Shown one piece after another: positions 5,807 to 61,590 of a stretch of 64,000 nucleotides of DNA. Both the position numbers and the translations under genes were made by a program. The notes beneath the pieces are model-generated. The model did not search any database and was not told where the DNA came from. It saw only the letters and a list, made by a program, of their open reading frames with translations. The stretch lies in NCBI RefSeq assembly GCF_055900595.2, contig NZ_CM148325.1; one strand, 5' to 3'. The first letter of the stretch is position 1. Each line of letters starts with the position of its first letter.

Positions 5807-5855
5807 TATCTGCTTGCCCCCATATTGACTGCATCTGTTGATTCCTGGAGATGCT

Positions 5856-8468: not shown

Positions 8469-8819
8469 AGTAAATAGCTGACTTATGGATGTGCTGGGGA
8501 TTCTATGTATTTAGCTGTGGCTTTACCATTACTTTTCCCGTTTTTGACTTAAATAGCAATTTACCCACCAATTCTTGCTGAACATCTATACTTTTTTTGT
8601 ATTTTTATGCGATTCATTGATTTCCGCAGTACGTGCAGTAAGGAATCGCGGAGCAACAGTGAAAGAATATTGTTGCTAATGATTTTATTTGATTGATTTC
8701 TTTATTGAAAAACAACGATGTGCTTAAAAATCATTCGGATCGGATTGCCGCGAAAGAAGTGATACACTAGCGCGTCAATATCAGTACGGTATCAGTATTC
8801 AGGTAGCTGTTGAGCCTGG

Positions 8820-8831
8820 GGCGGTAGCGTG
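8820..8831 (+). promoter_or_regulatory. ops element (GGCGGTAGCGTG) in the waaQ leader, expected RfaH recruitment site within a JUMPstart-like region
   Basis: Exact ops 12-mer read about 50 nt upstream of waaQ start. Confidence 0.8.
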
Positions 8832-11865: not shown

Positions 11866-12882
11866 ATGAGTGCCCACTATTTTAATCCACAAGAGATGAT
11901 CAATAAGACAATCATCTTCGATGAAAGGCCAGAGGCGTCAGTGGCATCATCATTCCATGTTGCTTATGGCATTGATCAGAACTTTCTTTTTGGTTGTGGT
12001 GTTTCAATCACGTCAGTTTTGTTACATAACAACGACGTGAGTTTTGTCTTCCACGTTTTTATTGATGATATCCCTGACGCCGATATCCAGCGTTTATCCC
12101 AATTGGCGAAAAGCTATCATACCTGTATCCAGATCCATCTGGTAAATTGTGAACGGCTTAAGGTATTACCGACGACCAAAAATTGGTCTATTGCCATGTA
12201 TTTCCGTTTTGTAATTGCAGATTACTTTATTGATCAACAAGATAAGATCCTGTACCTGGATGCTGATATCGCCTGTCAGGGAACCTTAAAACCGCTGATA
12301 ACAATGGATCTTGCCAATAACGTTGCTGCTGTTGTTACTGAACGCGATGCTAACTGGTGGTCGTTACGGGCTCAAAGTCTGCAGTGTAATGAACTTGAAA
12401 AGGGTTACTTTAATTCAGGTGTCCTGTTAATTAATACACTAGCGTGGGCGCAGGAGTCCGTTTCTGCTAAAGCGATGTCGATGCTTGCTGATAAAGCCGT
12501 CGTTTCCCGTTTAACCTATATGGATCAAGATATACTAAATCTTATCCTGTTAGGGAAAGTTAAATTCATTGATGCTAAATACAATACGCAATTTAGTTTA
12601 AATTATGAATTAAAAAAATCATTTATTTGTCCAATTAATGATGAAACCGTATTAATTCATTATGTCGGCCCGACAAAACCTTGGCATTACTGGGCCGGTT
12701 ATCCAAGCGCGCAGCCATTTATCAAAGCCAAAGAAGCATCGCCATGGAAAAATGAACCGTTAATGCGGCCAATTAACTCAAATTATGCTCGTTATTGCGC
12801 TAAGCATAATTTTAAACAAAATAAACCAATTAACGGGATAATGAATTATATTTATTATTTTTATTTAAAGATAATAAAATGA
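11866..12882 (+). CDS. waaO: GT8-family LPS alpha-1,3-glycosyltransferase (outer core, WaaO/WaaI-like)
   Basis: GT8 hallmarks (YGIDQNFLFGCGVSI, YLDADI); first gene after waaP as in R1/R4 core loci. Symbol by synteny. Confidence 0.6.
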   Translation: MSAHYFNPQEMINKTIIFDERPEASVASSFHVAYGIDQNFLFGCGVSITSVLLHNNDVSFVFHVFIDDIPDADIQRLSQLAKSYHTCIQIHLVNCERLKVLPTTKNWSIAMYFRFVIADYFIDQQDKILYLDADIACQGTLKPLITMDLANNVAAVVTERDANWWSLRAQSLQCNELEKGYFNSGVLLINTLAWAQESVSAKAMSMLADKAVVSRLTYMDQDILNLILLGKVKFIDAKYNTQFSLNYELKKSFICPINDETVLIHYVGPTKPWHYWAGYPSAQPFIKAKEASPWKNEPLMRPINSNYARYCAKHNFKQNKPINGIMNYIYYFYLKIIK

Positions 12883-12898
12883 CATTGAGAAAAGTTAA

Positions 12899-13894
12899 AT
12901 GAATGAATTTATAAAAGAACGGTTTTCGTATTTAGCAGATAATAAAAAAGAAAACGTCCCAGAGCTAAATGTTTCCTACGGTATCGATAAGAATTTTTTG
13001 TATGGTGCTGGCGTTTCAATTTCTTCCGTTTTGATTAATAATTCAGATATTAATTTTGTCTTTCATGTTTTCACTGATTATGTGGATGATGATTATTTAA
13101 AGTCATTTGATGAAACAGCAAAACAATTTAATACCTCAATTATTGTATATTTAATTGACCCAAAATACTTTGCTGATCTGCCGACGTCACAGTTTTGGTC
13201 GTACGCGACATACTTCAGGGTATTGTCCTTTGAATATCTGAGTGAAAGTATTTCCACACTGCTGTATCTGGATGCCGATGTCGTTTGTAAAGGAAGTCTG
13301 AAACCTCTCACAAAAATTATATTTAAAGATGAGTTTGCTGCGGTTATTCCTGACAATGATAGTACTCAGGCGGCATGTGCAAAACGTCTTAACATTCCCG
13401 AAATGAATGGACGTTATTTCAATGCAGGCGTTATCTATGTCAATCTTAAAAAATGGCATGAAGCAAATTTGACACCGTATTTACTCACGCTTTTACGAGG
13501 GGAAACTAAATATGGCTCTCTTAAATATTTAGATCAGGATGCGTTGAATATCGCATTTAATATGAATAATATCTACCTCGCGAAGGATTTTGATACTATT
13601 TATACCCTGAAAAACGAACTTCATGATCGTAGTCATCGAAAGTATCAGCAAACCATTACCGATAAAACAGTATTGATTCACTATACAGGGATAACTAAAC
13701 CATGGCATAGCTGGGCTGGATATCCGTCTGCATCATACTTTAATATCGCGCGTGAACAATCTCCCTGGAAGAAATATCCTCTTAAAGAGGCGCGGACTGT
13801 TGCAGAAATGCAGAAACAATATAAGCATCTGTTTGCCCATGGTGAGTATATAAAAGGCATAACTTCATTAATTAAGTACAAGCTTAAGAAATAA
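12899..13894 (+). CDS. waaT: GT8-family LPS alpha-1,2-glycosyltransferase (outer core, WaaT/WaaJ-like)
   Basis: GT8 motifs (YGIDKNFLYGAGVSI, YLDADV); second GT8 before waaY. Symbol by synteny. Confidence 0.55.
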   Translation: MNEFIKERFSYLADNKKENVPELNVSYGIDKNFLYGAGVSISSVLINNSDINFVFHVFTDYVDDDYLKSFDETAKQFNTSIIVYLIDPKYFADLPTSQFWSYATYFRVLSFEYLSESISTLLYLDADVVCKGSLKPLTKIIFKDEFAAVIPDNDSTQAACAKRLNIPEMNGRYFNAGVIYVNLKKWHEANLTPYLLTLLRGETKYGSLKYLDQDALNIAFNMNNIYLAKDFDTIYTLKNELHDRSHRKYQQTITDKTVLIHYTGITKPWHSWAGYPSASYFNIAREQSPWKKYPLKEARTVAEMQKQYKHLFAHGEYIKGITSLIKYKLKK

Positions 13895-13903
13895 ATTACT
13901 CTT

Positions 13904-14596
13904 ATGATTACAAGTATACGTTATCGCGGCTTCTCATTTTATTACAAAGATAATGATAATAAATATAAAGAAATCTTTGATGAAATACTGGCCTATAATT
14001 TTAAAACAGTAAAAGTATTACGTAATATTGATGATACCAAAGTATCGTTGATTGATACGAAATATGGTCGCTATGTTTTTAAAGTCTTTGCTCCGAAAAC
14101 GAAAAGGAATGAACGTTTTTTAAAATCTTTTGTAAAAGGTGACTACTATCAGAATTTGATCGTTGAAACCGATCGTGTCAGAAGTGCAGGTCTTACTTTT
14201 CCTAATGATTTTTATTTTCTGGCTGAGCGTAAAATTTTCAACTATGCCAGTGTTTTTATCATGCTTATCGAGTATGTCGAGGGCGTAGAGCTCAATGATA
14301 TGCCGATTATTCCAGAAAATGTTAAAGCAGAAATTAAGGCTTCAATGGAAAAATTGCATGCCTTAAATATGCTATCGGGCGACCCACACCGGGGTAACTT
14401 TATCGTTAGTAAAGATGGTGTCAGGATAATTGACCTATCCGGTAAAAGCTGTACGGCAGAGCGTAAAGCTCGTGATCGTCTGGCCATGGAACGTCACCTG
14501 GGTATTGCCAACGAAATAAAAGATTATGGCTACTATTCAGTAATCTACAGAACCAAACTACGCAAATTTATTAAAAAATTAAAAGGCAAAGCGTAA
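13904..14596 (+). CDS. waaY: LPS core heptose(II) kinase WaaY
   Basis: 230 aa, MITSIRYRGFSFYYKDNDNKYKEIFDEILAYNFKTVKVLRN...; kinase-like with DPHRGNF motif. Confidence 0.85.
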   Translation: MITSIRYRGFSFYYKDNDNKYKEIFDEILAYNFKTVKVLRNIDDTKVSLIDTKYGRYVFKVFAPKTKRNERFLKSFVKGDYYQNLIVETDRVRSAGLTFPNDFYFLAERKIFNYASVFIMLIEYVEGVELNDMPIIPENVKAEIKASMEKLHALNMLSGDPHRGNFIVSKDGVRIIDLSGKSCTAERKARDRLAMERHLGIANEIKDYGYYSVIYRTKLRKFIKKLKGKA

Positions 14597-14621
14597 ACCA
14601 CACAGTCAAAACGGAACCAAC

Positions 14622-15650
14622 ATGGATTTATTAGCTGAGAGTATTACTGAAGTCGCTGTCTCTGGGGAAATTGCTAACACCGATCGTGTGTTAAATATCG
14701 CTTACGGTATTGACCGTAATTTTTTATTTGGTGCGGCAGTATCTATGCAATCAGTTGTTATGCATAACCCAGACCTTGCGGTTAAGTTTCATCTCTTTAC
14801 CGACTACATTGATGAAGATTATCTACAACGTGTTAACGCTTTTACCAGCAAAAATGCTAACGTTGAAGTAAGAATTTATAAAGTCTCCAGTGTCTTTATT
14901 GATATCTTCCCCAGCCTGAAACAGTGGTCTTATGCAACATTCTTCCGTTTAGTTGCGTTCCAGTATCTGAGTGAAACTATTGAAAATCTGTTATATATCG
15001 ATGCTGATGTCATCTGTAAAGGCTCATTAGCTGGATTGCTTGATATTAATTTTGATGGCGATAAATTCGCAGCTGTTATTAAAGATGTGCCTTTTATGCA
15101 GGAAAAACCAGCGAAGCGTCTGGCTATAGAGGGGCTTCCAGGGAATTATTTCAACGCCGGTGTAGTATATCTGCAGCTTGAAGCGTGGGCGAAAAATGAT
15201 TTTATGAATAAAGCCATTGCTATGCTGGCAAGTGACCCGCAGCACACGAAGTATAAATGCCTTGATCAGGATATTTTAAATATTCTGTTCTTTGGTCATT
15301 GTATTTTTATTAGCGGCGATTATGATTGCTTTTATGGCATTGACTATGAGTTAAAAAATAAAAGCGATGAAGATTATAAAAAGACCATTACCGATGATAC
15401 TAAGCTGATTCATTATGTTGGCGTAACGAAGCCCTGGAACGACTGGACGAATTATCCCTGCCAGAAGTATTTTAATGAGGCTTATCAAGCTTCTTGCTGG
15501 AATGATGTGGCGTTTATTCCAGCCACGAATGAAAAACAGTATCAAGTGAAATCCAGACATTTGAAAAGAAATGGTAATATTGCATCTTCATTTTACTATT
15601 TCATGCTCTATTATAGTAAGAAAATAGCGCGTAAGCATTTTTCCAAATAA
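14622..15650 (+). CDS. waaW: GT8-family LPS alpha-1,2-glycosyltransferase (WaaW-like)
   Basis: Third GT8 paralog (YGIDRNFLFGAAVSM, YIDADV) located after waaY as in R1/R4 loci. Confidence 0.5.
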   Translation: MDLLAESITEVAVSGEIANTDRVLNIAYGIDRNFLFGAAVSMQSVVMHNPDLAVKFHLFTDYIDEDYLQRVNAFTSKNANVEVRIYKVSSVFIDIFPSLKQWSYATFFRLVAFQYLSETIENLLYIDADVICKGSLAGLLDINFDGDKFAAVIKDVPFMQEKPAKRLAIEGLPGNYFNAGVVYLQLEAWAKNDFMNKAIAMLASDPQHTKYKCLDQDILNILFFGHCIFISGDYDCFYGIDYELKNKSDEDYKKTITDDTKLIHYVGVTKPWNDWTNYPCQKYFNEAYQASCWNDVAFIPATNEKQYQVKSRHLKRNGNIASSFYYFMLYYSKKIARKHFSK

Positions 15651-15681
15651 TTATTAAGACTAATCATCCAGGGATTTTTTA

Positions 15682-16455
15682 ATGAACTTGCCCATTTATA
15701 TTGTCTCACTTAAAAGAGATATTGAGCGAAGAAATAAAATAAATGATGTCTTTCATCGATTAAACATTAATTTTGATTTTTTTGATGCCATAGATGCTAA
15801 AGATCCTCAAAATAAAGAAATTATTAATGAAATGAGATTAAGTGGTGTCGGCGCAGAAATGACTGATGGAGAAATTGCTTGTACGTTAAGTCATCAGCTT
15901 ATATATCAGGATATGATAGATAAAAATATAGAATGGGCAGTCATTCTAGAGGACGATGTTATCGTCAATGAGAAATTTAAAAATTTCCTTCAATACTTTA
16001 ATCCTTCTGAAAAAGACAAGTTAAAATATAATAATTTGTATTTGCTTGGAGGTCAGAAAGGATTACATGATTATCCAGTATTGGGGCAAAGCCTTTTTAG
16101 TAAAGTTAAGGTAAGTACTTGTATTTTTCGTCGTGTTAATTTTAATAAAAATAAAATTCGTCGTACATGTTCATATTTGATGAATAACGATATGGCACTA
16201 AAGTTGCTCAAATTGACAAAGGATTATGGCACCTATCGAGCTGATAGCTGGAAGTTAATGCATCAACATAATATTATAAAAGATTTTTATTTAGACGAAA
16301 TAATATTACATCCTATTTTAAATGAGTTTAATAGTCACCTTGAAAGTGAAAGGCTTTTAATATCGGAAAAAAAACAACCCAGGACAAGGCTTCAGAAAAA
16401 AATGAAGTTTATACGTTCCTGGATAAAGGTGGCTTTTTTTTCTCTTTTGAAATGA
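15682..16455 (+). CDS. waaX: GT25-family beta-glycosyltransferase (Lic2A/LgtB-like); position of waaX (R4) or waaV (R1)
   Basis: N-terminus MNLPIYIVSLKRDIERRNKIN... resembles GT25 family; lies immediately before waaL. waaX preferred over waaV on remembered family assignment only. Confidence 0.45.
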   Translation: MNLPIYIVSLKRDIERRNKINDVFHRLNINFDFFDAIDAKDPQNKEIINEMRLSGVGAEMTDGEIACTLSHQLIYQDMIDKNIEWAVILEDDVIVNEKFKNFLQYFNPSEKDKLKYNNLYLLGGQKGLHDYPVLGQSLFSKVKVSTCIFRRVNFNKNKIRRTCSYLMNNDMALKLLKLTKDYGTYRADSWKLMHQHNIIKDFYLDEIILHPILNEFNSHLESERLLISEKKQPRTRLQKKMKFIRSWIKVAFFSLLK

Positions 16456-16489
16456 GATTGTTAATTTCAATTTATTGTGAGATATTAAC

Positions 16490-17743
16490 GTGGAAGTAAA
16501 AATTGAGCAATTTCGAAATAATAGCTGTAATTTTATTTTTTTATTATATTTAATCGGTTTGTTGTTTGTGCCAATTGATCTAAATATTACCACTAAAATA
16601 ATTAATGCTACAGGTGCATTTTCTCTTTTTTTATTAATTGTAAATAACAAGCATAATTATAATAAAAATATCATTATATTAATTCTTGGCTTACTTCTTT
16701 TGGGTGCAATGAACCTGATATGGTATGAGTTTTATAAAACAGAAGATGTAGTATATAGAAATGCTTATCGAGGCTATCTTGAGTCTGGAAAACTATTAGT
16801 ATTTAGCTCGTTGACATTTTTATTACTAAGTAAAAATAAATTCAGGCAAAATGAAAAGCTACATTTTATTTCAGCTATCTTAGTTCAAATAATCATGCTA
16901 TGTAGAGCATATTATCAAGGGATATATTTGCATGCAGACCGCATTCCCCTCTCCGCCATGAATGGGAATATTGGTCAGATGGGGGCAGCGACTATTGCGG
17001 CTTATGTGATTACATTCACTACTTTATATTCTTCAATTGTATTCATCAAAATGCAATCGAAATATAAATGGTTTCTATTTTATGCTAACTTTGCTTTAAG
17101 CTTTGCAGCAGTAATGATGACAGGAACGCGTGCGGCAATTTTCACATTCCCACTTATGATTATGGTCATATTATTTCTTCAGCATCGTGATCAAAAAGTG
17201 TTTTTATTTAAAGGATTGAGTGGTGTTTTTATATTGCTACTTGCTTGTGGTTTGATATTTAATAAGGAAATTGAGAGGCGAATTAATTCATTAAAAGCTG
17301 ATGTTATTTCATATGCTACAAAAAATAACAGTCAATCCTCGGTCGGAGCACGTTTTGCAATGGTTAATGCAGGAATTAAAGGAAGTCCTGATGGTTTTAA
17401 TTGGCAATCTCTTGAGCAGCGTGCTGAAAAGATAAAAGCATTAAGTGCAGAAAATAATATTTATAGTGGAGCTTTATTATTCCTTGATGTACATATGCAT
17501 AATGAAATTGTTGAAGCTCTTTCCACGAAAGGGAAAATTGGTCTTCTTGTTCTTATTATGTTCTATGTTGCAATGATCTACTACTGTATCCGGGAGAAAA
17601 AATATATACTTTTGGTTTTCCCTGCTTCTATTATGTTATTTGGCATTAGTGATGTCATTACGCATGCTAAACCAATACCGGCATCGTGGATTGTGTGCCT
17701 CTTCCTGTCTATATCGTTTTTGAGTAAAAAAGAACCACAATAA
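16490..17743 (+). CDS. waaL: O-antigen ligase WaaL
   Basis: 417-aa polytopic membrane protein, AT-rich, last gene of the waaQ operon; GTG start. Confidence 0.8.
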   Translation: MEVKIEQFRNNSCNFIFLLYLIGLLFVPIDLNITTKIINATGAFSLFLLIVNNKHNYNKNIIILILGLLLLGAMNLIWYEFYKTEDVVYRNAYRGYLESGKLLVFSSLTFLLLSKNKFRQNEKLHFISAILVQIIMLCRAYYQGIYLHADRIPLSAMNGNIGQMGAATIAAYVITFTTLYSSIVFIKMQSKYKWFLFYANFALSFAAVMMTGTRAAIFTFPLMIMVILFLQHRDQKVFLFKGLSGVFILLLACGLIFNKEIERRINSLKADVISYATKNNSQSSVGARFAMVNAGIKGSPDGFNWQSLEQRAEKIKALSAENNIYSGALLFLDVHMHNEIVEALSTKGKIGLLVLIMFYVAMIYYCIREKKYILLVFPASIMLFGISDVITHAKPIPASWIVCLFLSISFLSKKEPQ

Positions 17744-17758
17744 TAAAAACGTTGATTA

Positions 17759-17785
17759 AGTAAGTGGGTATAATGCCCACTTACT
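17759..17785. terminator. bidirectional terminator hairpin between convergent waaL and waaC
   Basis: Perfect 10-bp stem agtaagtggg / cccacttact with 7-nt loop, A/T-rich flanks. Confidence 0.6.
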
Positions 17786-17790
17786 ATTTA

Positions 17791-18750
17791 TTAAATCAAT
17801 GTAATTTCTTTATAAACAGCCGCTGCTTCTAAATTATTTAAACTCTTTAGCGGAGCCCTACAAACCATCTGATTCTTCCCATACCCGCCAATTAATCCCG
17901 GATCGGTTGGCCCATAAACCGTGATATTGGGTCTATCCAGTGCCGCCGTTAAATGGCTTAACCCCGTATCCACCGACACCACAAATTTAGCCCCCGCCAG
18001 CACACAAGCAACGCCTTCCAGACTCATCTTCGGCAATACGTCGACATAATCAAATCCTTCCGCCAGTCTTTTTGCCCGCTCTTCTTCATGCGGCGCGCCC
18101 CACGGAAGTTTAATGCGAATCCCTGAATCTGCCAGTAAACCAATCAACTCTCGCCAGTGTGCTTCCGGCCAGTGTTTATCATCACGGGTTGTTGCATGAA
18201 GAAATACGGCATATTCGCCAGCATCTGTCGGCAGGTTCGTCAGGAAATGCTGCGCAATGGCATAATCGCCCTGAGTCTGCGGTTTGCTGTAACCCAGACT
18301 TTTGGCAAACAGTTCGCGGGTGCGTTCTACGGCGTGCTGCTGTTTTGCAATATGATGCTTACGATTGTAAAACAGGCTGGCTAAGGGTTCGCGAGCGGTT
18401 TGCCAGTCCATTCCATGCTTTACGCCATGCGCCAGACGCGTCACCAGCGCCGCGCTTTTTACCAGCCCCTGAGCGTCGATAATTGCGTCATAGTTCTCTG
18501 CTTGTAGCGCTTCACGAAACGCTTTCCGTTCAGCTTTTATGGGGGCCGAGAACCAGGCTTTACGCCAGCGACGTATTGCCACAGGAATAACTCGCTCAAC
18601 GGCAGCGTGCCAGGAAGGAATCTGTGCGAACCCTTCTTCCACCACCCAGTCAAACTTAATCCCTGGGATTGCCTGCTGGGCATCAGTGAGTGCGGGCAGC
18701 GTATGGAGAACATCGCCCATCGACGATGTTTTAACGATCAGAACCCGCAT
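17791..18750 (-). CDS. waaC: LPS heptosyltransferase I
   Basis: 319 aa, MRVLIVKTSSMGDVLHTLPALTDAQQAIPG... Confidence 0.93.
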   Translation of the reverse strand: MRVLIVKTSSMGDVLHTLPALTDAQQAIPGIKFDWVVEEGFAQIPSWHAAVERVIPVAIRRWRKAWFSAPIKAERKAFREALQAENYDAIIDAQGLVKSAALVTRLAHGVKHGMDWQTAREPLASLFYNRKHHIAKQQHAVERTRELFAKSLGYSKPQTQGDYAIAQHFLTNLPTDAGEYAVFLHATTRDDKHWPEAHWRELIGLLADSGIRIKLPWGAPHEEERAKRLAEGFDYVDVLPKMSLEGVACVLAGAKFVVSVDTGLSHLTAALDRPNITVYGPTDPGLIGGYGKNQMVCRAPLKSLNNLEAAAVYKEITLI

Positions 18751-19809: not shown

Positions 19810-20742
19810 TTATGCGTCGCGATTCAGCCAGGCCATATATTCCGTTACGCCTTCGGCAACGGTTTTGAACGGTTTATCGTAACCCGCCGCGCGCAGATTC
19901 GTCAGATCCGCCTGAGTGAATGCCTGATAGCGGCCTTTCAGTTTATCCGGGAACGGAATGTATTCGATCTGGCCTTTCTTGTGATAAGCAAGCGTAGCAT
20001 CCGCTACTGCCTGGAAGGATTCTGCACGACCGGTACCGAGGTTGAAGATGCCGGATACGCCATTTTCCAGGAACCACAGATTCACATCAGCCACGTCGCC
20101 CACATAGACGAAGTCACGTTTGAAGTTCTCGCTACCTTCGAACAGCTTCGGTGATTCACCGTTGTTAAGCTGAGTGTTGAGATGGAAAGCGACGCTCGCC
20201 ATGCTGCCTTTATGGCCTTCACGCGGTCCATAAACGTTGAAATAGCGGAAGCCAACAATCTGCGAGTTCGCTTCTGGCAGGATTTGGCGAACATATTCAT
20301 CAAACAGGAATTTTGAGTAACCGTAGACGTTCAACGGTTTTTCGTACTCGCGGGATTCAATAAAGTCGGAGGTGCGACCGCCGTAAGTGGCCGCGGAAGA
20401 GGCATACAGGAACGGGATTTCGCGTTCCAGACAGTAGTGCAGCAGCTCTTTGGAGTATTGATAGTTGTTATCCATCATATACTTGCCATCCCACTCGGTG
20501 GTGGAAGAGCACGCGCCTTCGTGGAAAATCGCTTCGACATCGCCGAACTCTTCGCCAGCCATAATCTGGATCAGGAAGTCTTCCTTATCCATATAGTCCG
20601 CGATATTCAGATCCACCAGGTTCACAAACTTGGTGCCGTCTTTCAGGTTGTCCACCACCAGAATATCGGTGATGCCTTTATCATTCAGGGCCTTAACGAT
20701 GTTGCTGCCGATAAAGCCCGCGCCGCCGGTAACGATGATCAT
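19810..20742 (-). CDS. hldD: ADP-L-glycero-D-manno-heptose 6-epimerase
   Basis: 310 aa, [33 protein letters not shown]... Confidence 0.95.
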
Positions 20743-20955
20743 AACTGTAACCTTCGAATTATGGAGTCAGAGACAATCTCAGACACGAATGCTTCTATCA
20801 TATCACTACACGGCGTTCGCTTCAGCCATTCGCCAAAAGTGAGATTGATGGACGTTATTTATCCTGAATTTTGCAGAAGTGTTAACGCGTCATCTCGTCG
20901 CAACCTATAAGTTTGGGTAATATGTGCTGGAATTTGCCCTGTCTGGAGAATCGCA

Positions 20956-22152
20956 ATGCGTGGAGAATTTTATCAGCAGTTAACCAACGATCTGGAAACC
21001 GCAAGGGCGGAAGGGTTGTTTAAAGAAGAGCGCATTATTACGTCTGCGCAACAAGCAGACATCACTGTGGCTGATGGAAGCCACGTCATTAACTTTTGTG
21101 CCAATAACTATCTCGGACTGGCGAATCATCCGGATCTGATTGCGGCGGCAAAGGCGGGAATGGATTCTCACGGTTTCGGCATGGCTTCGGTGCGTTTTAT
21201 TTGCGGCACTCAGGACAGCCATAAAGAGCTTGAACAAAAACTGGCGGCCTTCCTGGGGATGGAAGATGCGATTCTCTACTCTTCCTGCTTTGATGCTAAC
21301 GGTGGCCTGTTTGAAACGCTGCTGGGCGCGGAAGACGCCATTATCTCCGACGCACTGAACCACGCGTCTATTATTGATGGTGTGCGTCTGTGCAAAGCTA
21401 AACGCTATCGTTATGCCAACAACGATATGCAGGAGCTGGAAGCACGTCTGAAAGAAGCGCGTGAAGCCGGTGCGCGTCATATGCTGATTGCCACCGATGG
21501 TGTGTTCTCAATGGACGGCGTGATTGCCAACCTGAAAGGTGTTTGCGATCTCGCCGATAAATACGATGCGCTGGTGATGGTGGATGACTCTCACGCGGTC
21601 GGTTTTGTCGGTGAAAACGGTCGTGGCTCCCATGAATACTGCGATGTGATGGGCCGGGTCGATATTATCACCGGCACGCTCGGTAAAGCGCTGGGTGGCG
21701 CTTCTGGTGGTTATACCGCGGCGCGCAAAGAAGTGGTTGAGTGGCTGCGCCAGCGTTCTCGTCCGTACCTGTTCTCCAACTCGTTGGCACCGGCCATTGT
21801 TGCCGCTTCCATCAAAGTGCTGGAGATGGTTGAAGCGGGTAGCGAGCTGCGTGACCGTCTGTGGGCGAACGCGCGTCAGTTCCGTGAGCAAATGTCGGCG
21901 GCGGGCTTTACCCTGGCGGGTGCCGATCACGCCATTATTCCGGTCATGCTTGGCGATGCTGTAGTGGCGCAAAAATTTGCACGTGAACTGCAAAAAGAGG
22001 GCATTTACGTCACCGGTTTCTTCTATCCGGTCGTTCCTAAAGGTCAGGCGCGTATTCGTACCCAGATGTCTGCGGCGCATACCCCTGAGCAAATTACGCG
22101 TGCGGTAGAAGCGTTCACGCGTATTGGTAAACAACTGGGCGTAATCGCCTGA
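20956..22152 (+). CDS. kbl: 2-amino-3-ketobutyrate CoA ligase
   Basis: 398 aa, [38 protein letters not shown]... Confidence 0.95.
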
Positions 22153-36435: not shown

Positions 36436-36520
36436 GCCGGATGCGGCGTGAACGCCTTATCCGTCCTACAGGAATGTGCTGAATCATCCCGTAGGTCTGA
36501 TAAGCGCAGCGCATCACGCA
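36436..36520. repeat. REP/BIME element
   Basis: gccggatgcggcgtgaacgccttatccgtcctac and gtaggtctgataagcgcagcgcatcacgc. Confidence 0.7.
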
Positions 36521-36551
36521 ATTTGGCGTTTACCCATTCTTTAATGGATCA

Positions 36552-39500
36552 TTACCACTGAATACCGGCACCGAGTGCGGCGGAGTATTCACCCTGGCTA
36601 TTGGTACTACCTTGTAATTTGTAGACCCAACGACCATTGGCGCTCACCATCGACACACCTAAAGCAACAGCCGATTCGCCGTTGTAAGTACCACCACCAA
36701 TAGAGGCCATGCTGGCTCCCGGCGTGTAAGCCTGCGGCAGACCGGTCATTGCCATTGCGGAAGCGATACCACCGCTCAACTTGCTTTCGGTTTTGGACAG
36801 TTTGTTATCCATCTCAACCATGCGCTGATCGGTGTATTGCTTCGTTTCCTGCACACTTTGCTTCAACTGTGCATAGTTCACTGCGTCGTTGTTGTTCACG
36901 CCCGCAGAAACGTTGCTGATGCGAGTCGTACCGCCATTGCCGCCACCGAGAGTGATGTTGCTGTAGTCGATAGAGCCATCAGCTTTGGTGTCGTAGCGAA
37001 CGCCACCTGCTTCGGAAGACTTCAGTTGCGAAACGTTAACCGCATCGGTGGCATTAACACCGGCAGCAACGTTGGTGATACGGCGCTGGTTGGTAGAAGA
37101 ACCCACAGAGATTGTGTTTTCTTCGTTGGCCACGGAGCCTGTACCCAGAGCGACGCTGTTGTCAGCGGCAGCAATGGATCCAGAACCAATCGCCACACTG
37201 TCTTTACCCTGGGCGTTAGCATCTACGCCATCGGTGTTGGTCTTGAAGTACTTGGTGCTACCTGTGGTTACGATATCGCCAATACCGTTCTCGATATTGG
37301 TCACGCGAGTATCCAGATTCGTCACCTGATTGTTCAGGTTAGTAATGCTCTGGGTATTCTGGGAAACCTGCGCATCCGTTACTTTCAATTGACCCACGTT
37401 GACCGCATCGGTATCAGCCGAACCAGCCGCGACGTTGGTGATCTGACGTTGACCGTCTTCGCTACCTACGGAGAATTCACCCACAGAGTTCTGCGGTGCA
37501 TCCATGTTGTAGGCGGTGTAGCCAGTTTGTGCGCCACGGGTAGTTTGAGAACCATTACCCATTGCAATGCTGTTTGCATGGTTTGCACGCGCGTTGCTAC
37601 CGATAGCAATACCGTTAATCGCATCTGCCAGAACTAAAGTGTTCAGGCCGATACCAATACCTGCATTACCATTAACGATGGTTTTTGCGCCCATTGCCAG
37701 CGAGTCTTCACCGATTGCCAGTGAGTCTTCAGCCGTTGAATTGGCGTGATAGTATTTGGTTGGCGTGGTGGCTACTGCACCAATGGCATTCTGCAACTGG
37801 CGAACCGTAACGGCGTCATGGGCTTCAGAACCATCGGCAACATTGATGATTTGACGATATTTACCATCGTCACCGATCGACAATGCGCCAAGCAGTTCAC
37901 CGTCAGTTGTGTCATAACCAATCACAACACCTTCTTCCGATACGCTGGTGTCACGAGAACCTTTAACTATTAAACGGCTGGAAACGGAACTGCTACCCAG
38001 AGCGATACCTGTATCAACGTTGCTGTAACTGTCCTGACCGATGGCTACACTGCTGGCACGAGAGGCAACAGCGTTATAACCCACAGCGGTAGCACCAATA
38101 CCTGAAGCGCTGGCATCGTTGAATGCTAAGCCGTTGTCGTTGGTACGCACATAGTTAATACCCGCGCCATTTTCTTCGATGTAGGTTTCACTGGTGTTAC
38201 CGGCAAGCTGATTGATGACTTCGCTGTTCTGCTGGATCAGCATATTGGTGTTAAACAGCTGAGAACCGTTCACTGCATCGGTGCTACCTTCACCAATGTT
38301 ACCATCAGCAACGTTTGTGATAATGCTGGCCTTGCCGTCATGACTGGCGTTGTAAGCCCCTTCGCCGTTATTGGCGGTCGCATCCCACAGCAGCGCGTTC
38401 TCATCAAGCGCATCCAGAGCGTCACCGACATTGTTGTACTCGGCATTCGCAATGGTGTAAGTCGGCGCAGTGATAGTACCGTCAGCGTTAACTTCTGCAT
38501 CACCGCCCAGAGCATCTGCGATATATTTATTAGTGGTATAGAGTTGTGAGCCGTTAATCGCGTCGCTGCTGGTGGCAGAGATTGCACCATTTGCGACGTT
38601 AGTAATCTTACTGGCAGTGTTATCTACCCCACGACCGGCGCTGAATGCACCAGCACCGTCATTGGCTGTTGCATCCCAGAGCAGGGCGTCATCCAGTGTG
38701 GTATCGATCGCTTCCAGTGCGTCACCAACGTTGCTGTAACTGCCGCCAGCGATGGCATAAGTCGGTGTGGTGATACTGCCGTCCGCATTCACCACAGCGT
38801 TCCCGCCCAGAGCATCGGCAATGTAGTCACTAACGCCATAAAGTTGAGAACCATTAATAGCGTCGCTACTGGTGGATGAGACTGCACCGTTTGCAACATC
38901 AGTGATTACACTGGGATCATTATTAATGCCGTGTTTGGCGCTGAATTTGCCTGCGGTTGTATCCCAGAGCAGAGCATCACCGAGAGAATCACTAAATGAA
39001 GTGTTAATCGCAGCCAGAGCATCCCCGACGCTAGTGTAGTCAGTGCCGCCAATACTATAGGTTGGCCCGGTTAATATACCTGTATCGCTAATATCAGCCC
39101 CACCACCCAGATAGGACGTGAATGAATCAGCCAAACCGTAAAGTTGTGAGCCATTAATGGCGTCAGTGCTGTCAGAGGAGACTATGCCAGCTTGTACGTT
39201 GCTGATTTTGTTGGCGGCGTTAGTGCCGTGTGCAGCGGTGAATGCGCCTGCGGCGTCGTCCCATTTCAGGGCGTCTTCACCGAGGTTAGTCACCGTATCA
39301 GTCAGGTTAGTGATATTGGTGGTGTTGGTCGCCACATCGTCCTTGGTCGCTTTCAGCTGAGAACCATTAACGGCGTCGGTGCTGGTGTCAGAGAGCTCGC
39401 CAGCGGTGACGTTAGTGATTTTGTTGGTGGCGTTGGTGCCGTGTGCAGCGGTGAATGCGCCTGCGGCATCGTCCCATTTCAGGGCGTCTTCACCGAGGTT

Positions 39501-41363
39501 AGTCACCGTATCAGTCAGGTTAGTGATGTTGGTGGTGTTAGTTGCCACGTTATCGTTAGTGGTTTTCAACTGAGAACCGTTAACGGCGTCGGTGCTGGTG
39601 TCAGAGAGCTCGCCAGCGGTGACGTTAGTGATTTTGTTGGTGGCGTTGGTGCCGTGTGCAGCGGTGAATGCGCCTGCGGCATCGTCCCATTTCAGGGCGT
39701 CTTCACTAAGGTCAGTCACCGTATCAGTCAGGTTAGTGATATTGGTGGTGTTGGTCGCCACATCGTCCTTGGTCGCTTTCAGCTGAGAACCATTAACGGC
39801 GTCGGTGCTGGTGTCAGAGAGCTCGCCAGCGGTGACGTTAGTGATTTTGTTGGTGGCGTTGGTGCCGCGTGCAGCGGTGAATGCGCCTGCGGCATCGTCC
39901 CATTTCAGGGCGTCTTCACCGAGGTTAGTCACCGTATCAGTCAGGTTAGTGATATTAGTGGTGTTGCCAGCCACTTCGCTCGTCAGGTTAGTGATGTTGG
40001 TGGTGTTTGCCGCCACATCGTCCTTGGTCGCTTTCAGCTGAGAACCGTTGACGGCGTCGGTGCTGGTGTCAGAGAGGTCGCCAGCGGTGACATTGGTGAT
40101 TTTGCTAGTGGCGTTGTTGCCATGGGCAGCGCTGTATTTGCCATTGGTTTGGTCCCATTGCAGAGTGTTTTCATCAAGTACAGTGAGCGCATCGCCAACG
40201 TTATTTTTGTTACCATTTTTTAAGTTGTAGGCGGGGGCTTTAACTGTACCGTCGTCAACGTTTACCGATGCGCCTCCACCCAGTCGTTTTGCTACCGAGT
40301 CGCTGATGGCATAAAGCTGCGAGCCATTAATGGCGTCATTGCTGTCAGCTTTGATGGTGCCATTTTTCACATTCACGATCTTGCGTTTTAATGAGTCATT
40401 ACCGACAGAAACGCTATCGTCCAGATCCGCAATCGAACCTGCCCCCAACGCGACGGCGTTAATACCGTTGGCGCTGGTATTACTACCAAGCGCAAGACTA
40501 TTATCGCCCGTGACAACACTGGTTTTACCTAAAGCAATAGAGTTTAAGCCACTCGATTGGCTACCATTACCCAGAACGATAGCATCTGTACCATTAGCTT
40601 TGTTGCCCTGACCTATGGCAATTTCGCTATCTGCCAAAGCCTGGCTGCCATTGCCCAATACGATAGTATTGGTTTTATCGGCAAGGCTCCCGGAGCCCAG
40701 CGCCATGCTATTAGTCCCTTTTGCCTTCGCATTATTGCCAATGGCGGTAGCATTTTCAGCGGCTTCGGTGTTAGTGCCCATCGCGATGGAGTCCGTTCCT
40801 GATGCATTTGCCAATCGTCCTAATGCAAGAGCATTAGCAGCACTTGCTACCGTATCTTTGCCCAACGCCATGGCACCTTCACCTTTAGCTTGAGCAGAAT
40901 TCCCCAGTGCAAGTGTATAATCGCTGGTCGCTTTAGCTGCACTGCCGATGGCGATAGCTCGGCTGCCCGTTGATACCGTTGATTGCCCTAAGCCAACCGA
41001 TCTTTCTCCTGATGAGTTACTTGAGAAGCCAATTGCCGTACTGCCCACCCCGGCGGTCGAACCTATTCCTACCGCAACACTTCCTGTATTCTCTGTTCCT
41101 GAACCCTTTGGCTCTGATGATGCGACAGCACCTTTACCAATGGCAATCCAGTCATTACTGAGTGGCGTTGCCTCTGCGCTTTTACCACCGTCAAGTGAAA
41201 CCGAAGCATTGGCCCCAACGGGTGAGAGTAGCCCACCCGCAACCAGCGCGGAAATTAACAGCTTACTACGCCCGCTCTTTTTTCCACGACTCTTCGCCGT
41301 TTCGCTGGCAACGCTATAGCTGCCCGTCGCTGGATTCCAGATAACTTTAAAAATTTTGTTCAT
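36552..41363 (-). CDS. trimeric autotransporter adhesin (YadA-like; UpaG/EhaG/SadA family), 1603 aa
   Basis: N-terminal extended signal peptide [21 protein letters not shown]...; long repetitive Ser/Thr/Asn/Gly-rich passenger with NGSQL-type head/neck motifs; C-terminal YadA-type anchor ending ...[36 protein letters not shown]. Confidence 0.85.
39166..40060. repeat. tandem array of about 4 copies of a 213-bp (71-aa) unit inside the adhesin gene
   Basis: Plus-strand artefact ORFs start at 39379, 39592 and 39805 (213-nt spacing) with near-identical translations; the adhesin shows repeated [71 protein letters not shown] blocks. Confidence 0.85.
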
Positions 41364-41406
41364 TATTGATGTTCTCTATTCCTTGATATAAGCGCAGAAG
41401 CTGCAT

Positions 41407-42090
41407 TTATTTTTTGTTTTTCCGCTGCTGAGTTTCAGCAGGTTGAACAGTGTCGAACTGGAGATTGGCCATATTGATGGACAATTTCAGATACTTCAGG
41501 TTATTAGGTGAAACGCCTTTTAATGTCAGGTTAATGTCTTGCCATTGACCAGGCATTAATTGCAGGGTGGAGTTCATGGTGGTGTTGAAAAGTAATTGTT
41601 GCCACTTCGACAGCGCTTTGGTATCGGTGGGTCTTTCACTGCCCCATGTGGCTTGAAAGCCAATATTTGATACGGGAACGCTTAATAGGTTGACCAGCGA
41701 AATACGAATAACGCTACCATTTTCAACTGCATCAATAGACAGCACCCGGCCTGCCAAACCAACCGAGCCATTGTTTAAAATGAAGTATTTTGTTTGTGCA
41801 GGGTTAAATTCGGTGAAGACAAATTCGTCCTGTTTGTCTTTGACCGCCTTTACTACACCCGCCAGCACTTTAGTGGTGTTTGCAATATTAATTTGTTGAT
41901 TTTCAATAAATTCTATCTTTCTTTTATATTGTTCTTGTTGTTTTTCAAGAATCTCTATTTTACTTTTTTGCAATTCTTGCTGTTTGGCAAGATCGTCGAT
42001 CAGATTCGCTTTCTCAATATAGTCACACCCAGTCAATACCCAGAGTGGCAATGTTATCAACATGCTTAATAGTGCTTTTTTGATGCTCAT
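41407..42090 (-). CDS. SadB-like inner-membrane lipoprotein encoded immediately upstream of the adhesin
   Basis: Signal peptide with LTGC lipobox and Asp at +2 (CD, inner-membrane retention); coiled-coil-like QQELQKSKIEILEKQQEQYKRKIEFIENQQ; ends 44 nt upstream of the adhesin start on the same strand. Confidence 0.65.
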   Translation of the reverse strand: MSIKKALLSMLITLPLWVLTGCDYIEKANLIDDLAKQQELQKSKIEILEKQQEQYKRKIEFIENQQINIANTTKVLAGVVKAVKDKQDEFVFTEFNPAQTKYFILNNGSVGLAGRVLSIDAVENGSVIRISLVNLLSVPVSNIGFQATWGSERPTDTKALSKWQQLLFNTTMNSTLQLMPGQWQDINLTLKGVSPNNLKYLKLSINMANLQFDTVQPAETQQRKNKK

Positions 42091-42662
42091 AGGGTGAATT
42101 CCTTTTCATGATCCCGATACGTTAACTGTTACGGCGTAATCATCCTTTTTATGAATGATTCGAGTGGAAATATACGTTATATAAATTTATAAGAGACTTT
42201 TTCTATTAATTGTTGTATTAATTGGTAGTGCGAATATGACATTAAATGTCAGACAATTTCAGATTGTAGCCAATAATATTAATCGCGCGGATTTTAATGA
42301 TCGATGTCAATCAATGTCAAATGTTTCACCGGATGAAAACACCGACCAGGAGAAATATTAATATTCAGCATGGTGATGTTTTCTTGGGAAGTGTGTGATT
42401 CTGAGCGATAAATATAAATAATTAATGGCTGTTACAGGCATTAATGTGCATTAATTCATTGTTATCGCTTATATATCACTTTTTTATTCCATACCACAAT
42501 TTCAGAATTTAGCCTGTAATATGCGCTTCAAAGAGCCGGTGAGATGGAAGCAATAGTGATAAGAATGTTAAAGATATCCGATATCTGGTATCAGGCTCCT
42601 GCATGTGCCAGCAGGAGCGAGTAAATCGTGAGAGGCTGTGATTACAGCGGTGAGACAGGTAC

Positions 42663-48212: not shown

Positions 48213-48575
48213 ATGTTTCTAAACTATTTCGCGTTGGGAGTGCTGATCTTCGTCTTTCTGGTGATTTTTTATGTAATCATCGCGATACATGACATCCCTT
48301 ATCTGATTGCCAAAAAGCGCAATCACCCCCATGCCGACGCTATTCATACGGCGGGCTGGGTGAGCCTGTTTACTCTGCATGTTATCTGGCCGTTCCTGTG
48401 GATCTGGGCGACGCTCTATCAACCGGAGCGTGGCTGGGGTATGCAGTCACATGTTGCGTCGCAGGAGAAAGCGACTGACCCGGAAATCGCCGCACTTTCT
48501 GACCGAATTTCCCGGCTGGAGCATCAACTCGCCGCCGAGAAAAAGACTGACTATTCCACGTTCCCGGAGATCTAA
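48213..48575 (+). CDS. yibI: DUF3302-family small inner membrane protein YibI
   Basis: 120 aa, [45 protein letters not shown]... Confidence 0.85.
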
Positions 48576-48577: not shown

Positions 48578-49714
48578 ATGGATCTATTGATTGTTTTAAC
48601 TTACGTGGCGCTGGCGTGGGCGGTCTTTAAAATCTTCCGCATTCCGGTAAATCAGTGGACGCTGGCGACGGCGGCGCTGGGAGGCGTGTTTCTGGTGAGT
48701 GGTTTGATTTTGTTGATGAACTACAACCACCCTTACACTTTTACCGCACAGAAAGCGGTGATTGCTATTCCCATCACGCCACAGGTGACGGGGATCGTGA
48801 CTGAAGTCACTGACAAGAATAATCAGCTCATTCAGAAGGGCGAGGTGCTTTTTAAGCTCGACCCGGTACGTTATCAGGCGCGAGTCGACAGACTTCAGGC
48901 TGACCTGATGACGGCGACGCATAATATAAAGACACTGCGCGCGCAGCTCACTGAAGCGCAAGCCAATACCACCCAGGTTTCAGCGGAGCGTGACCGCTTG
49001 TTTAAAAATTATCAACGTTACCTGAAAGGCAGCCAAGCGGCGGTAAATCCGTTCTCAGAACGTGATATCGACGATGCGCGGCAGAATTTTCTCGCGCAGG
49101 ATGCGCTGGTGAAAGGCTCGGTGGCGGAACAGGCGCAAATCCAGAGCCAGCTCGACAGTATGGTTAACGGTGAGCAGTCGCAGATTGTCAGCTTAAGGGC
49201 GCAGCTTACCGAAGCGAAATATAACCTTGAGCAGACCGTCATTCGCGCGCCGAGCAATGGCTACGTCACTCAGGTGCTGATCCGCCCAGGTACATACGCA
49301 GCTGCCTTGCCGTTGCGTCCGGTAATGGTTTTCATCCCTGAGCAAAAACGGCAAATTGTCGCCCAATTTCGGCAAAACTCGCTGTTACGTCTGAAACCCG
49401 GCGATGATGCGGAAGTGGTGTTTAACGCGCTACCTGGGCAGGTGTTCCACGGCAAACTGACTAGTATTTTACCTGTCGTGCCAGGCGGTTCGTATCAGGC
49501 GCAAGGGGTATTGCAATCATTAACGGTCGTGCCCGGCACGGACGGTGTGCTGGGAACCATTGAACTGGACCCTAACGATGATATCGATGCTTTACCCGAC
49601 GGCATCTACGCCCAGGTGGCAGTTTACTCCGACCATTTCAGCCATGTTTCGGTGATGCGGAAGGTGCTGCTAAGAATGACCAGTTGGATGCATTATCTTT
49701 ATTTGGATCATTGA
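48578..49714 (+). CDS. yibH: HlyD-family (membrane fusion protein-like) inner membrane protein YibH
   Basis: 378 aa, single N-terminal TM then coiled-coil and barrel-sandwich-like regions; starts 3 nt after yibI. Confidence 0.85.
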
Positions 49715-49784
49715 GACTTGTATCACCTGTGTTTTGCGCGAGCCTGAGCCATACTGATATTTTTCCTCGCACAAAGGACTCGGC

Positions 49785-50393
49785 ATGAAACTCGTCGGTA
49801 GCTACACCAGCCCGTTTGTACGCAAACTTTCTATTCTGTTGTTAGAAAAGGGCATAACTTTCGAATTTATTAATGAACTGCCCTATAACGCGGACAACGG
49901 CGTGGCGCAATTTAACCCGTTAGGGAAAGTGCCGGTGCTGGTGACTGAAGAGGGCGAATGTTGGTTTGATTCGCCGATCATCGCTGAATATATTGAATTA
50001 ATGAATGTCGCTCCGGCGATGTTGCCGCGCGATCCGCTGGAGTCGTTGCGAGTGCGCAAAATTGAGGCGCTGGCGGATGGCATTATGGATGCCGGGCTGG
50101 TATCGGTGCGTGAACAGGCACGTCCGGCGGCGCAGCAGTCTGAAGATGAATTGTTACGCCAGCGGGAGAAAATCAACCGCAGTCTGGATGTGCTGGAAGG
50201 ATATCTGGTCGATGGCACGCTCAAAACCGATACGGTCAATCTGGCGACTATCGCCATTGCCTGTGCCGTCGGATATCTCAATTTCCGCCGCGTTGCGCCA
50301 GGCTGGTGTGTCGACCGCCCACACTTAGTCAAACTGGTCGAAAACCTGTTTAGCCGCGAAAGTTTTGCTCGCACCGAACCGCCAAAGGCTTGA
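49785..50393 (+). CDS. yibF: glutathione S-transferase YibF
   Basis: 202 aa, [39 protein letters not shown]... Confidence 0.9.
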
Positions 50394-57048: not shown

Positions 57049-57234
57049 GTGAAAAGTGCAGACGTGATCGCCATCCTGAAGCAGCATGGCTGGGAACATA
57101 TTCGAACCCGTGGTAGTCATCATCAGTTCCGCCACCCTGTCCATCCGGGTCTGGTGACGGTTCCGCACCCTAAAAAAGATATTAAGCCCGGTACGCTGGC
57201 GCAAATTGGGCGTCAGGCTGGTTTAACATTTTAA
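57049..57234 (+). CDS. hicA: HicA-family toxin (61 aa), GTG start
   Basis: MKSADVIAILKQHGWEHIRTRGSHHQFRHPVHPGLVTVPHPKKDIKPGTLAQIGRQAGL: HicA-like GSHH...GL(V)TVP(H)PKKD signature; TATAAT at 57025-57030 upstream. Confidence 0.8.
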   Translation: MKSADVIAILKQHGWEHIRTRGSHHQFRHPVHPGLVTVPHPKKDIKPGTLAQIGRQAGLTF

Positions 57235-57250
57235 AATTTCAGGAGGCAAT

Positions 57251-57661
57251 ATGTTTTATCCCGCCTATATCCACAGTGATCCTGACGGCAGCGCCAGCGG
57301 TTTTTTCCCTGATGTTCCAGGCTGTTATTTTGCTGGTGATACGCTGGACAACGCTTTCCAGGATGCGCGAAGTGCACTGGTCGCGCACTTCGAAACCTTA
57401 TGCGAGATGAATGAAGAGTTGCCGCTTCCAGGCTCTGTGGAAACACATCTGGTCCAGCGTGCGCAGGACTTTATTGGCGGGCAATGGTTGCTGGTGGATA
57501 TCAATATGAATCAGTTCGAAGGTCGGGCTGAACGTATCAATATTACGATGCCGAAAAGATTACTGAACAAGATTGATACCTACGTGCGCAATAACCCAGA
57601 CTACGCCAACAGAAGTGCGTTTCTGGCGGAAGCTGCCCGGCGTGTATTGCCGGGCGTTTAA
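57251..57661 (+). CDS. hicB: HicB-family antitoxin (136 aa) with C-terminal ribbon-helix-helix
   Basis: Starts 17 nt after hicA; C-terminal INITMPKRLLNKIDTYVRNNPDYANRSAFLAEAARRVL is RHH/CopG-like. Confidence 0.75.
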   Translation: MFYPAYIHSDPDGSASGFFPDVPGCYFAGDTLDNAFQDARSALVAHFETLCEMNEELPLPGSVETHLVQRAQDFIGGQWLLVDINMNQFEGRAERINITMPKRLLNKIDTYVRNNPDYANRSAFLAEAARRVLPGV

Positions 57662-58041
57662 TCTCGCGTTTCGATGGTGAGCGGGCGGACCAGGCTGTAC
57701 AGCCACAGACCAAAACAAGCGATGGTGCCAATCACCACGGTGAGGAACACACTGACTGACAGGCCTGCAAGCAATCCCGCAGGCAGGGCCAGCAGGCCGT
57801 GGATCACGGTGTCGTTCCATCTCACCTGATCGTAGCCAAACATGCCTAAAACGCCGCAAACCAGACCGTAAATCACCATTGGTGTTCCGAGGCCAATCAG
57901 CAATAAACGGTAGATAATTGAAGGTTTAATACGCTTTATCTGTACTGTGGATGTTTTACTGGGGTTATTCATTAGTTTGGTCAATAGTTCCATTATTTCA
58001 ATATGATAAACCTCGACCTGTTGAAAAGCCAGGTAGCACAC
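57658..58041 (-). CDS. small hydrophobic membrane protein of unknown function (111-127 aa depending on start)
   Basis: Track ORF; two or three predicted TM segments (IIYRLLLIGLGTPMVIYGLVCGVLGMF, GLLALPAGLLAGLSVSVFLTVVIGTIACFGLWLY); 3' end overlaps hicB stop by 4 nt (convergent). Start uncertain. Confidence 0.45.
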   Translation of the reverse strand: MCYLAFQQVEVYHIEIMELLTKLMNNPSKTSTVQIKRIKPSIIYRLLLIGLGTPMVIYGLVCGVLGMFGYDQVRWNDTVIHGLLALPAGLLAGLSVSVFLTVVIGTIACFGLWLYSLVRPLTIETRD

Positions 58042-58154
58042 TTCAGAAAGTATATAAAAAACAATATGTCGTTATATAAATAAGGAAATTGCACTGCATC
58101 ATGGCATTTCATAATATGCGTTAATTGTTCTTTTTTATATTCTCTGAGGGAAAT

Positions 58155-58478
58155 ATGTTCCTGGACTATTTTGCACTGGGAGTGCTTATTTTTGTATTTC
58201 TGGTGATATTCTATGGGATTATTATTTTACATGATATTCCCTACCTGATTGCTAAAAAACGTAATCATCCTCATGCCGACGCCATTCATGTTGCTGGTTG
58301 GGTGAGTCTTTTTACGCTGCATGTTATCTGGCCATTTTTGTGGATTTGGGCCACGCTTTACCGCCCGGAGCGGGGATGGGGAATGCAAAACCATGACTCC
58401 TCCGTTGTGCAACTACAACAGCGTATTGCCGGGCTGGAGAAACAGCTCGCCGACATCAAATCCTCTTCTGCCGAGTAA
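58155..58478 (+). CDS. yiaW: DUF3302-family small inner membrane protein YiaW (paralog of YibI)
   Basis: Start at [46 protein letters not shown]-terminal ~75 aa nearly identical to YibI. Confidence 0.85.
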
Positions 58479-58483
58479 TACTT

Positions 58484-59620
58484 ATGGATTTACTGATTAT
58501 TTTGACCTATGTGGCTTTCGCATGGGCAATGTTTAAGATCTTCAAAATTCCTGTAAATAAATGGACCATTCCCACCGCGGCCCTGGGTGGCATATTTATT
58601 GTCAGCGGTCTAATTCTGTTAATGAACTATAACCATCCGTATACCTTTAAAGCGCAAAAAGCGGTTATTTCTATTCCTGTTGTCCCGCAGGTGACAGGCG
58701 TGGTGATCGAAGTGACGGACAAGAAAAATACGCTGATTAAAAAAGGTGAGGTGCTATTTCGACTGGACCCGACGCGTTATCAGGCGCGGGTGGATCGGCT
58801 GATGGCGGATATCGTTACCGCAGAACATAAACAGCGGGCGTTGGGCGCAGAGTTAGATGAGATGGCGGCGAATACTCAGCAGGCAAAGGCCACGCGGGAT
58901 AAATTCGCTAAAGAGTACCAGCGTTACGCACGCGGCAGCCAGGCGAAAGTAAACCCGTTTTCAGAACGCGATATTGATGTGGCGCGGCAAAATTATCTGG
59001 CGCAGGAAGCCTCCGTAAAGTCATCGGCGGCGGAACAAAAACAGATCCAGAGCCAGCTGGATAGCCTGGTGTTGGGTGAACATTCTCAAATCGCCAGCCT
59101 GAAAGCGCAGCTCGCGGAAGCAAAATATAACCTTGAGCAGACGATAGTGCGTGCGCCGAGCGATGGTTATGTGACCCAAGTGCTGATTCGTCCGGGTACC
59201 TATGCCGCATCGCTGCCGCTACGTCCTGTGATGGTGTTTATACCCGATCAGAAACGACAAATTGTGGCGCAGTTCCGTCAGAACTCCTTGCTGCGACTGG
59301 CTCCCGGCGATGATGCGGAAGTGGTGTTTAATGCTCTGCCAGGTAAGGTATTCAGCGGTAAGCTGGCAGCCATTAGCCCAGCTGTTCCCGGCGGAGCTTA
59401 TCAGTCGACCGGCACCTTACAGACGTTAAACACAGCACCGGGTTCAGATGGCGTTATCGCGACCATTGAACTGGATGAGCACACTGAGTTGAGCGCTTTA
59501 CCAGACGGTATTTACGCCCAGGTGGCGGTTTACTCTGATCATTTCAGCCATGTCTCGGTGATGCGCAAAGTGCTGTTACGCATGACCAGTTGGGTGCATT
59601 ACCTTTATCTCGATCATTAA
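58484..59620 (+). CDS. yiaV: HlyD-family inner membrane protein YiaV (paralog of YibH)
   Basis: 378 aa, collinear with YibH along the full length with high identity. Confidence 0.85.
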
Positions 59621-61504: not shown

Positions 61505-61590
61505 CAGGCTTGATAAGACGCGTTAAGCGTCGCATCAGGCAATGTGCACCCTACGTTGGATGCGGCGCGAGCGCCTTATCCAACCTACGG
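61505..61590. repeat. REP/BIME element overlapping the stop codon of the downstream GH127 gene
   Basis: aggcttgataagacgcgttaagcgtcgcatcaggca and ggatgcggcgcgagcgccttatccaacctacgg. Confidence 0.65.

Follow-up and report, generated by a model that had tools for sequence, protein, structure and literature searches.

Two short intergenic spacers of an Escherichia coli lineage, at the sites that hold rhsA and htrL in K-12, are very probably ancestral and uninterrupted

Eleven Rhs loci have been distinguished in E. coli by Jackson et al. 2009 (PMC2935791), and the interval between yibF and yibH, the rhsA site of K-12, is position 10 among them. The same study mapped presence and absence of Rhs at position 10 across strains and inferred that the element there arose after the split from a Rhs-poor pathogenic group, so the polymorphism at yibF/yibH is already published (PMC2935791). 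The annotation of K-12 MG1655 gives the order yibF-[rhsA yibA yibJ yibG yibS yibW yibV yibU]-yibH, with 8287 bp between yibF and yibH, and, at a second site, the order kbl-htrL-rfaD, with 1435 bp between kbl and rfaD (hldD). The gene at this second site, htrL (yibB), is likewise a known accessory gene; a literature search on htrL/rfaD/kbl returned nothing on its distribution, while a study of Salmonella Typhimurium gives ‘kbl<>rfaD’ as divergent neighbours (PMC10268841). K-12 HtrL itself matches Pfam PF09612, in NCBI naming the WlaTC/HtrL family of glycosyltransferases (E=8e-131). A third comparable system is retron-Ec107 at pyrE-ttk, reportedly described by Herzer et al. in 1992 as an islet insertion lacking the hallmarks of a mobile element.

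The window analysed here, a 64-kb stretch of DNA, contains both K-12 sites, with gene identities taken from Pfam and from the RefSeq annotation of near-identical genomes. At the first, yibI (48213..48575, + strand; DUF3302, Pfam PF11742, E=8e-41, and named yibI in the annotation of strain E200086) opens a yibI-yibH pair, followed by yibH (48578..49714, +), which encodes a HlyD-family membrane-fusion-like protein with Pfam HlyD/CusB domains. A spacer of 70 bp (49715..49784), the unoccupied position 10, then leads to yibF (49785..50393, +), a glutathione S-transferase-like gene with Pfam GST_N and GST_C domains and annotated as such in RefSeq. A paralogue of the yibI-yibH pair at roughly 70% identity, yiaW-yiaV, lies further along the window at about 58143..59618. 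At the second site, hldD (rfaD; 19810..20742, - strand), encoding ADP-glyceromanno-heptose 6-epimerase and identified from a 100% identical region annotated rfaD, is the first gene of hldD-waaF-waaC and diverges from kbl (20956..22152, +; glycine C-acetyltransferase in the RefSeq annotation), which is followed by tdh. The 213 bp between them (20743..20955) contain no open reading frame and constitute the unoccupied htrL site.

A sequence-only reading of the window had given these spacings as about 70 and 213 bp and had proposed both intervals as empty relative to rhsA and htrL on the K-12 map. Both spacings are exact, the proposed positions of rhsA (between yibF and yibH) and of htrL (between kbl and hldD) agree with the MG1655 annotation, and BLAST alignment with K-12, to which the window is 94–97% identical, reveals true empty sites at both loci, the K-12 intervals not being equally short. 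In the yibH-yibF spacer, 32 nt (49716..49747) have no counterpart in K-12 at BLAST level, and 8249 bp stand there instead; in the hldD-kbl spacer, 46 bp (20806..20851) without a K-12 BLAST match are replaced by 1267 bp containing htrL. Neither islet is found elsewhere in the window: tblastn with K-12 RhsA, YibA, YibG, YibV and HtrL as queries detected no homologue anywhere in the 64 kb, and blastn found no match there to the DNA of either islet, including the whole 8249-bp Rhs islet. With only 70 bp between yibH and yibF, there is no large GC-rich open reading frame for a YD-repeat core and none of the AT-rich downstream part that carries yibA, yibJ, yibG, yibV and others in K-12, and no PF09612 reading frame lies on the kbl strand between hldD and kbl.

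The two K-12 insertions resemble the retron-Ec107 islet in that each replaces a short stretch of the ancestral spacer (32 and 46 bp at BLAST resolution), and in that a search around htrL revealed no direct repeats at its flanks. They differ from it in that refined alignments shrink the replaced stretch to roughly 10–18 nt. At the hldD-kbl site, refined alignment against htrL-carrying alleles confines the allele-specific part of the empty spacer to about 15–18 nt near 20835–20851; at the Rhs site, alignment suggests that K-12 retains a diverged version of the 25–30 nt closest to yibF, in which case the nucleotides truly replaced may number fewer than 32. Part of each ‘missing’ spacer thus seems to persist, diverged, in the occupied alleles, which makes the argument that the empty allele holds extra sequence weaker than the BLAST breakpoints imply. 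As for the nature of the htrL islet, the K-12 segment has a GC content of 32–40% against 50–58% in its flanks. A search for direct or inverted terminal repeats or a target-site duplication bracketing this segment found none, leaving an origin by transposon, insertion sequence or integrase unsupported.

The retron site is also represented in the window, where it is occupied. A reverse transcriptase gene (904..1875, +), classed by PADLOC as RT_Ec107-like (E=6.9e-133), lies between pyrE (149..619) and slmA (ttk; 1919..2557, -), forming a third presence/absence site relative to K-12. The same gene is present in E200086, and Rfam reported no msr/msd RNA for this retron at its gathering threshold.

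The ancestral state of the Rhs site was approached by a scan with YibF of one genome per bacterial species, which yielded 55 loci. The spacing between yibH and yibF is 61–92 bp in 13 outgroup loci, among them E. whittamii, Escherichia sp. E1V33, two further Escherichia species representatives, C. amalonaticus, Kluyvera, Lelliottia, Huaxiibacter, Pluralibacter and several other Enterobacteriaceae genomes. The window spacer aligns throughout with these outgroups, its sequence being conserved in the Escherichia outgroups and C. amalonaticus. Wherever yibI-yibH adjoins yibF in the outgroups there is no RhsA homologue within 10 kb, and tblastn of K-12 RhsA against all 55 loci gave zero matches. C. 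koseri is the exception to the compact spacing: its yibH is degenerate and lies about 174 bp from yibF. Given the outgroup spacing and the aligned spacer, the compact yibH-yibF arrangement is, on parsimony, to be taken as ancestral and the K-12 Rhs element as an insertion, a polarity that agrees with the inference of Jackson et al. 2009.

Two Escherichia genomes have other occupants beside yibF. In E. albertii NBRC 107761 (contig 1..840) a MOSC-domain-like reading frame lies directly upstream of yibF, replacing yibH or Rhs, and homology to E. coli stops within about 20 nt of the K-12 Rhs breakpoint; a point immediately ahead of the yibF ribosome-binding site may thus be prone to rearrangement. 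In Escherichia sp. MOD1-EC7003 (contig 1..2965) a core-less Rhs relic adjoins yibF, made up of the K-12 yibF-rhsA spacer at 92.5% identity, a yibU-like stretch at 79% and an ISAs1/H-repeat-like reading frame; Rhs-derived occupants of the yibF site thus extend beyond E. coli proper.

For the hldD-kbl site, named outgroup Kbl proteins were taken from the members of 90% clusters and their contigs compared. The interval measures 213 bp in E. fergusonii, 202 bp in Salmonella enterica, 215 bp in Enterobacter and 213 bp in Klebsiella variicola, and the window interval is colinear over its full length with those of these four htrL-less taxa, at 83% mean column identity and with only short gaps. Structurally, the window shows no difference from the htrL-less region of E. 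fergusonii, Salmonella, Enterobacter, Klebsiella and most E. coli, BL21 derivatives among them, while K-12, O157:H7 and O103/O111 strains differ from it by the 1.27-kb htrL islet. The outgroup colinearity, together with the low GC content of htrL, identifies the empty state as the apparent ancestral one and htrL as a presumably acquired islet. The polarity at both sites is drawn by parsimony from a limited set of outgroups, and the presence of htrL at this one site in four genera leaves some room for an ancient htrL followed by multiple losses.

Both intervals are thus very probably ancestral Enterobacteriaceae spacers that were never interrupted, the window lineage having kept the pre-insertion allele at each site. 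In this history, K-12 and its relatives would have gained a Rhs element of about 8.2 kb immediately behind the yibH stop codon, and a low-GC islet of about 1.2 kb with the putative LPS glycosyltransferase gene htrL/yibB would have entered the middle of the hldD-kbl promoter region.

The frequency of each state was determined in a census of 5,426 complete E. coli genomes, 5424 of which match the probes at all. A probe of 270 bp that spans the junction of yibH and yibF is unbroken, at 97.8–100% identity, in 1521 of the 5424 (28%), including CFT073, and the complete yibH-yibF pair is contiguous in 1523 genomes, including strain 042. The yibF-rhs junction of K-12 type is found in 3708 genomes (68%), O157:H7, O103:H2 and K-12 derivatives among them, and about 195 genomes have another arrangement at the Rhs site. 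The flanking genes and intact junction of the window are like those of the Rhs-free CFT073 site, with the 270-bp probe 99.3% identical, and in strain 042, as in the window, yibH and yibF are contiguous. Against this background of CFT073 and 042 the window shows no structural difference, but its flanks represent a more divergent haplotype, the best match over yibH-yibF being 97.6%. At the second site, a 301-bp hldD-kbl probe is intact in 3465 of the 5424 genomes (64%), including the BL21(DE3) derivative Nico21(DE3), and the K-12 htrL segment is present in the other 1959 (36%), the two counts adding up exactly to 5424; for htrL, then, K-12 has the minority state.

The breakpoints are uniform at both sites. 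Among the matches listed, Rhs-occupied E. coli lose homology at one and the same nucleotide (window 49748), and genomes with a split hldD-kbl interval always have their kbl-side break at window 20852. One breakpoint pair per site in the E. coli genomes among these matches points to a single origin of each insertion; on this reading each insertion allele would have arisen once, after which homologous recombination in the conserved genes on either side would have spread or replaced it and, in the case of htrL, carried it across genus boundaries as well.

Excision or deletion of the elements from an occupied ancestor, leaving short scars, has some precedent, as strains are known to lose Rhs loci or to keep mere relics of them (PMC2935791) and the core-less remnant beside yibF in MOD1-EC7003 is a case in point. 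Such scars would hardly take the form of full-length spacers colinear with those of distant genera and of the same structure in 1521 and 3465 E. coli genomes, since independent events would differ in their end points, and no islet remnant is present in the window; we therefore consider deletion most improbable. An assembly artefact, in which copies of a repeated Rhs element were merged or passed over, is a natural concern for multi-copy Rhs cores, which often break short-read assemblies, and two of our outgroup contigs, those of E. albertii NBRC 107761 and MOD1-EC7003, do end near yibF. A collapse would nevertheless not yield a clean 70-bp spacer like that of 1521 complete genomes, conserved moreover in outgroups, and htrL is single-copy, so that the chance of such an artefact is next to negligible.

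All four combinations of occupancy are present in E. coli: K-12 carries both Rhs and htrL, BL21 carries Rhs without htrL, M7424 and M00057 carry htrL without Rhs, and the window and E200086 carry neither. The sequence-only reading had regarded the empty sites as useful for strain placement and for dating the insertions, a value that it overstated. The empty states are frequent (28% and 64%), and with each state widespread and all four combinations occurring neither marker alone places a strain; three other genera have the htrL-carrying allele with exactly the same breakpoints, and the variation in Rhs occupancy had been published before. Presence and absence at these sites would consequently reflect old alleles reshuffled by recombination, and no datable recent event. 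What is gained is mostly bookkeeping, in that K-12 comes out as derived at both loci and the frequencies of the empty Rhs and htrL sites are now given for complete E. coli genomes.

The window itself falls within E. coli, being 96–98% identical to most complete E. coli genomes and 87–94.5% identical to representatives of other Escherichia species. Over its first 38 kb it shares 99.92% identity with a small group of complete genomes, of which E200086 (stool, Mali) is typical, while from about 41 kb on identity to this group or to any other complete genome is only 98.0–98.8%, and the best match to the right third (42.7–64 kb) is 98.0%. The genome that the window comes from is absent from the 5,426 of the census. 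From this pattern of identity the window appears to derive from an E. coli lineage that is poorly represented among complete genomes and mosaic with respect to its nearest relatives. A 6.1-kb stretch between lldP and yibL (36494..42659), absent from K-12, contains, according to the E200086 annotation, a 4.6-kb gene for a YadA-like trimeric autotransporter and a DUF3251 gene. Inside the autotransporter gene identity to E200086 falls from 99.92% to 92–98%, and it is then 98.4–98.8% to the end of the window, a drop that marks a recombination boundary.

This mosaicism bears on whether the empty sites could be secondary, an ancestor once occupied having re-imported the ancestral empty allele from a donor by homologous recombination across the flanks. 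The presence of all four state combinations indicates that the sites have been reshuffled in E. coli, the change in identity to E200086 from 99.92% (to 38 kb) to 98.0–98.8% beyond covers the yibH-yibF site, and the 270-bp junction is 100% identical to that of an unrelated strain, AR_0013. Yet neither site is occupied in the closest genomes, those of the E200086 group, no close relative carrying an insertion turned up, and reversion calls for extra events. We regard it as unlikely, and continuous descent of the never-interrupted spacers as the better account.

The distribution of HtrL homologues beyond E. coli is patchy. The closest are those of Cedecea davisae (82% amino acid identity), C. amalonaticus (80%) and Atlantibacter hermannii (76%), and all three sit between hldD and kbl in the orientation seen in K-12. 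The htrL-carrying alleles have two breakpoints and a distinctive flank haplotype in common across genera, and the htrL gene of K-12 is only about 75% identical in DNA to that of C. amalonaticus. The insertion allele is therefore old, and most likely, we infer, it has passed whole from genus to genus, with recombination acting in the highly conserved hldD and kbl sequences on either side. More speculatively, and with a low probability in our view, the shared breakpoints and haplotype, the gene identity of about 75% and the division of E. coli into 64% empty and 36% occupied may reflect an ancient polymorphism in the presence of htrL, common to several genera at this single location and maintained by balancing or phage-driven selection, not by neutral gain and loss. 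If so, selection would target a glycosyltransferase that modifies LPS and whose gene sits within the promoter region of hldD. For annotators, htrL is best treated as an accessory LPS-related gene that would move between genera at a fixed site beside the waa cluster.

More distant HtrL homologues, of about 60% identity, occur at unrelated loci in C. freundii, in Salmonella Saintpaul and as a second copy in E. coli. The E. coli paralogue (GCA_900448175.1, contig 4001..4975) and that of Salmonella Saintpaul (contig 5001..5858) both lie upstream of a PF00180 gene of the isocitrate/isopropylmalate dehydrogenase family, and in E. coli an IS1 transposase gene stands between the HtrL/YibB copy and the PF00180 gene.

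The compact arrangement at the Rhs site has a possible consequence for transcription. In its ancestral position yibF, 70 bp behind yibH on the same strand, might be co-transcribed with yibI-yibH, and the K-12 insertion would sever this link: there, yibF is separated from yibIH by 8.3 kb, and rhsA is divergent from yibF. An intrinsic-terminator scan found no terminator-like hairpin in the 70-bp spacer, which makes read-through from yibI-yibH into yibF a prediction that may hold for the ancestral arrangement, the scan being of low sensitivity, as were those that missed promoters. Simple consensus scans of limited sensitivity found no sigma-70 promoter or intrinsic terminator in either spacer, a result that is uninformative because hldD and kbl must have promoters in the scanned region; by the same reasoning the 213 bp would have to hold the divergent hldD and kbl promoters. 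For annotation purposes, yibI-yibH-yibF can be regarded as a conserved tight trio outside K-12, its separation in K-12 being secondary.

Several other features of the window are of note. The outer-core part of the waa cluster (12000..17800) does not align with K-12; its E200086 counterpart carries waaO, two further GT8-family genes, a GT25-family gene and an O-antigen ligase, so that the LPS core type differs from that of K-12. Between aldB and yiaW (approximately 57050..58000) the colinear E200086 annotation places a hicA/hicB toxin-antitoxin pair and a small hypothetical gene. Rfam detected no element at either spacer, its only matches in the window lying elsewhere and both above the gathering score: a JUMPstart element (8793..8831, +) upstream of the waaQ operon, and naRNA4, a REP-derived nucleoid-associated RNA (61507..61585, -), near the right end of the window.
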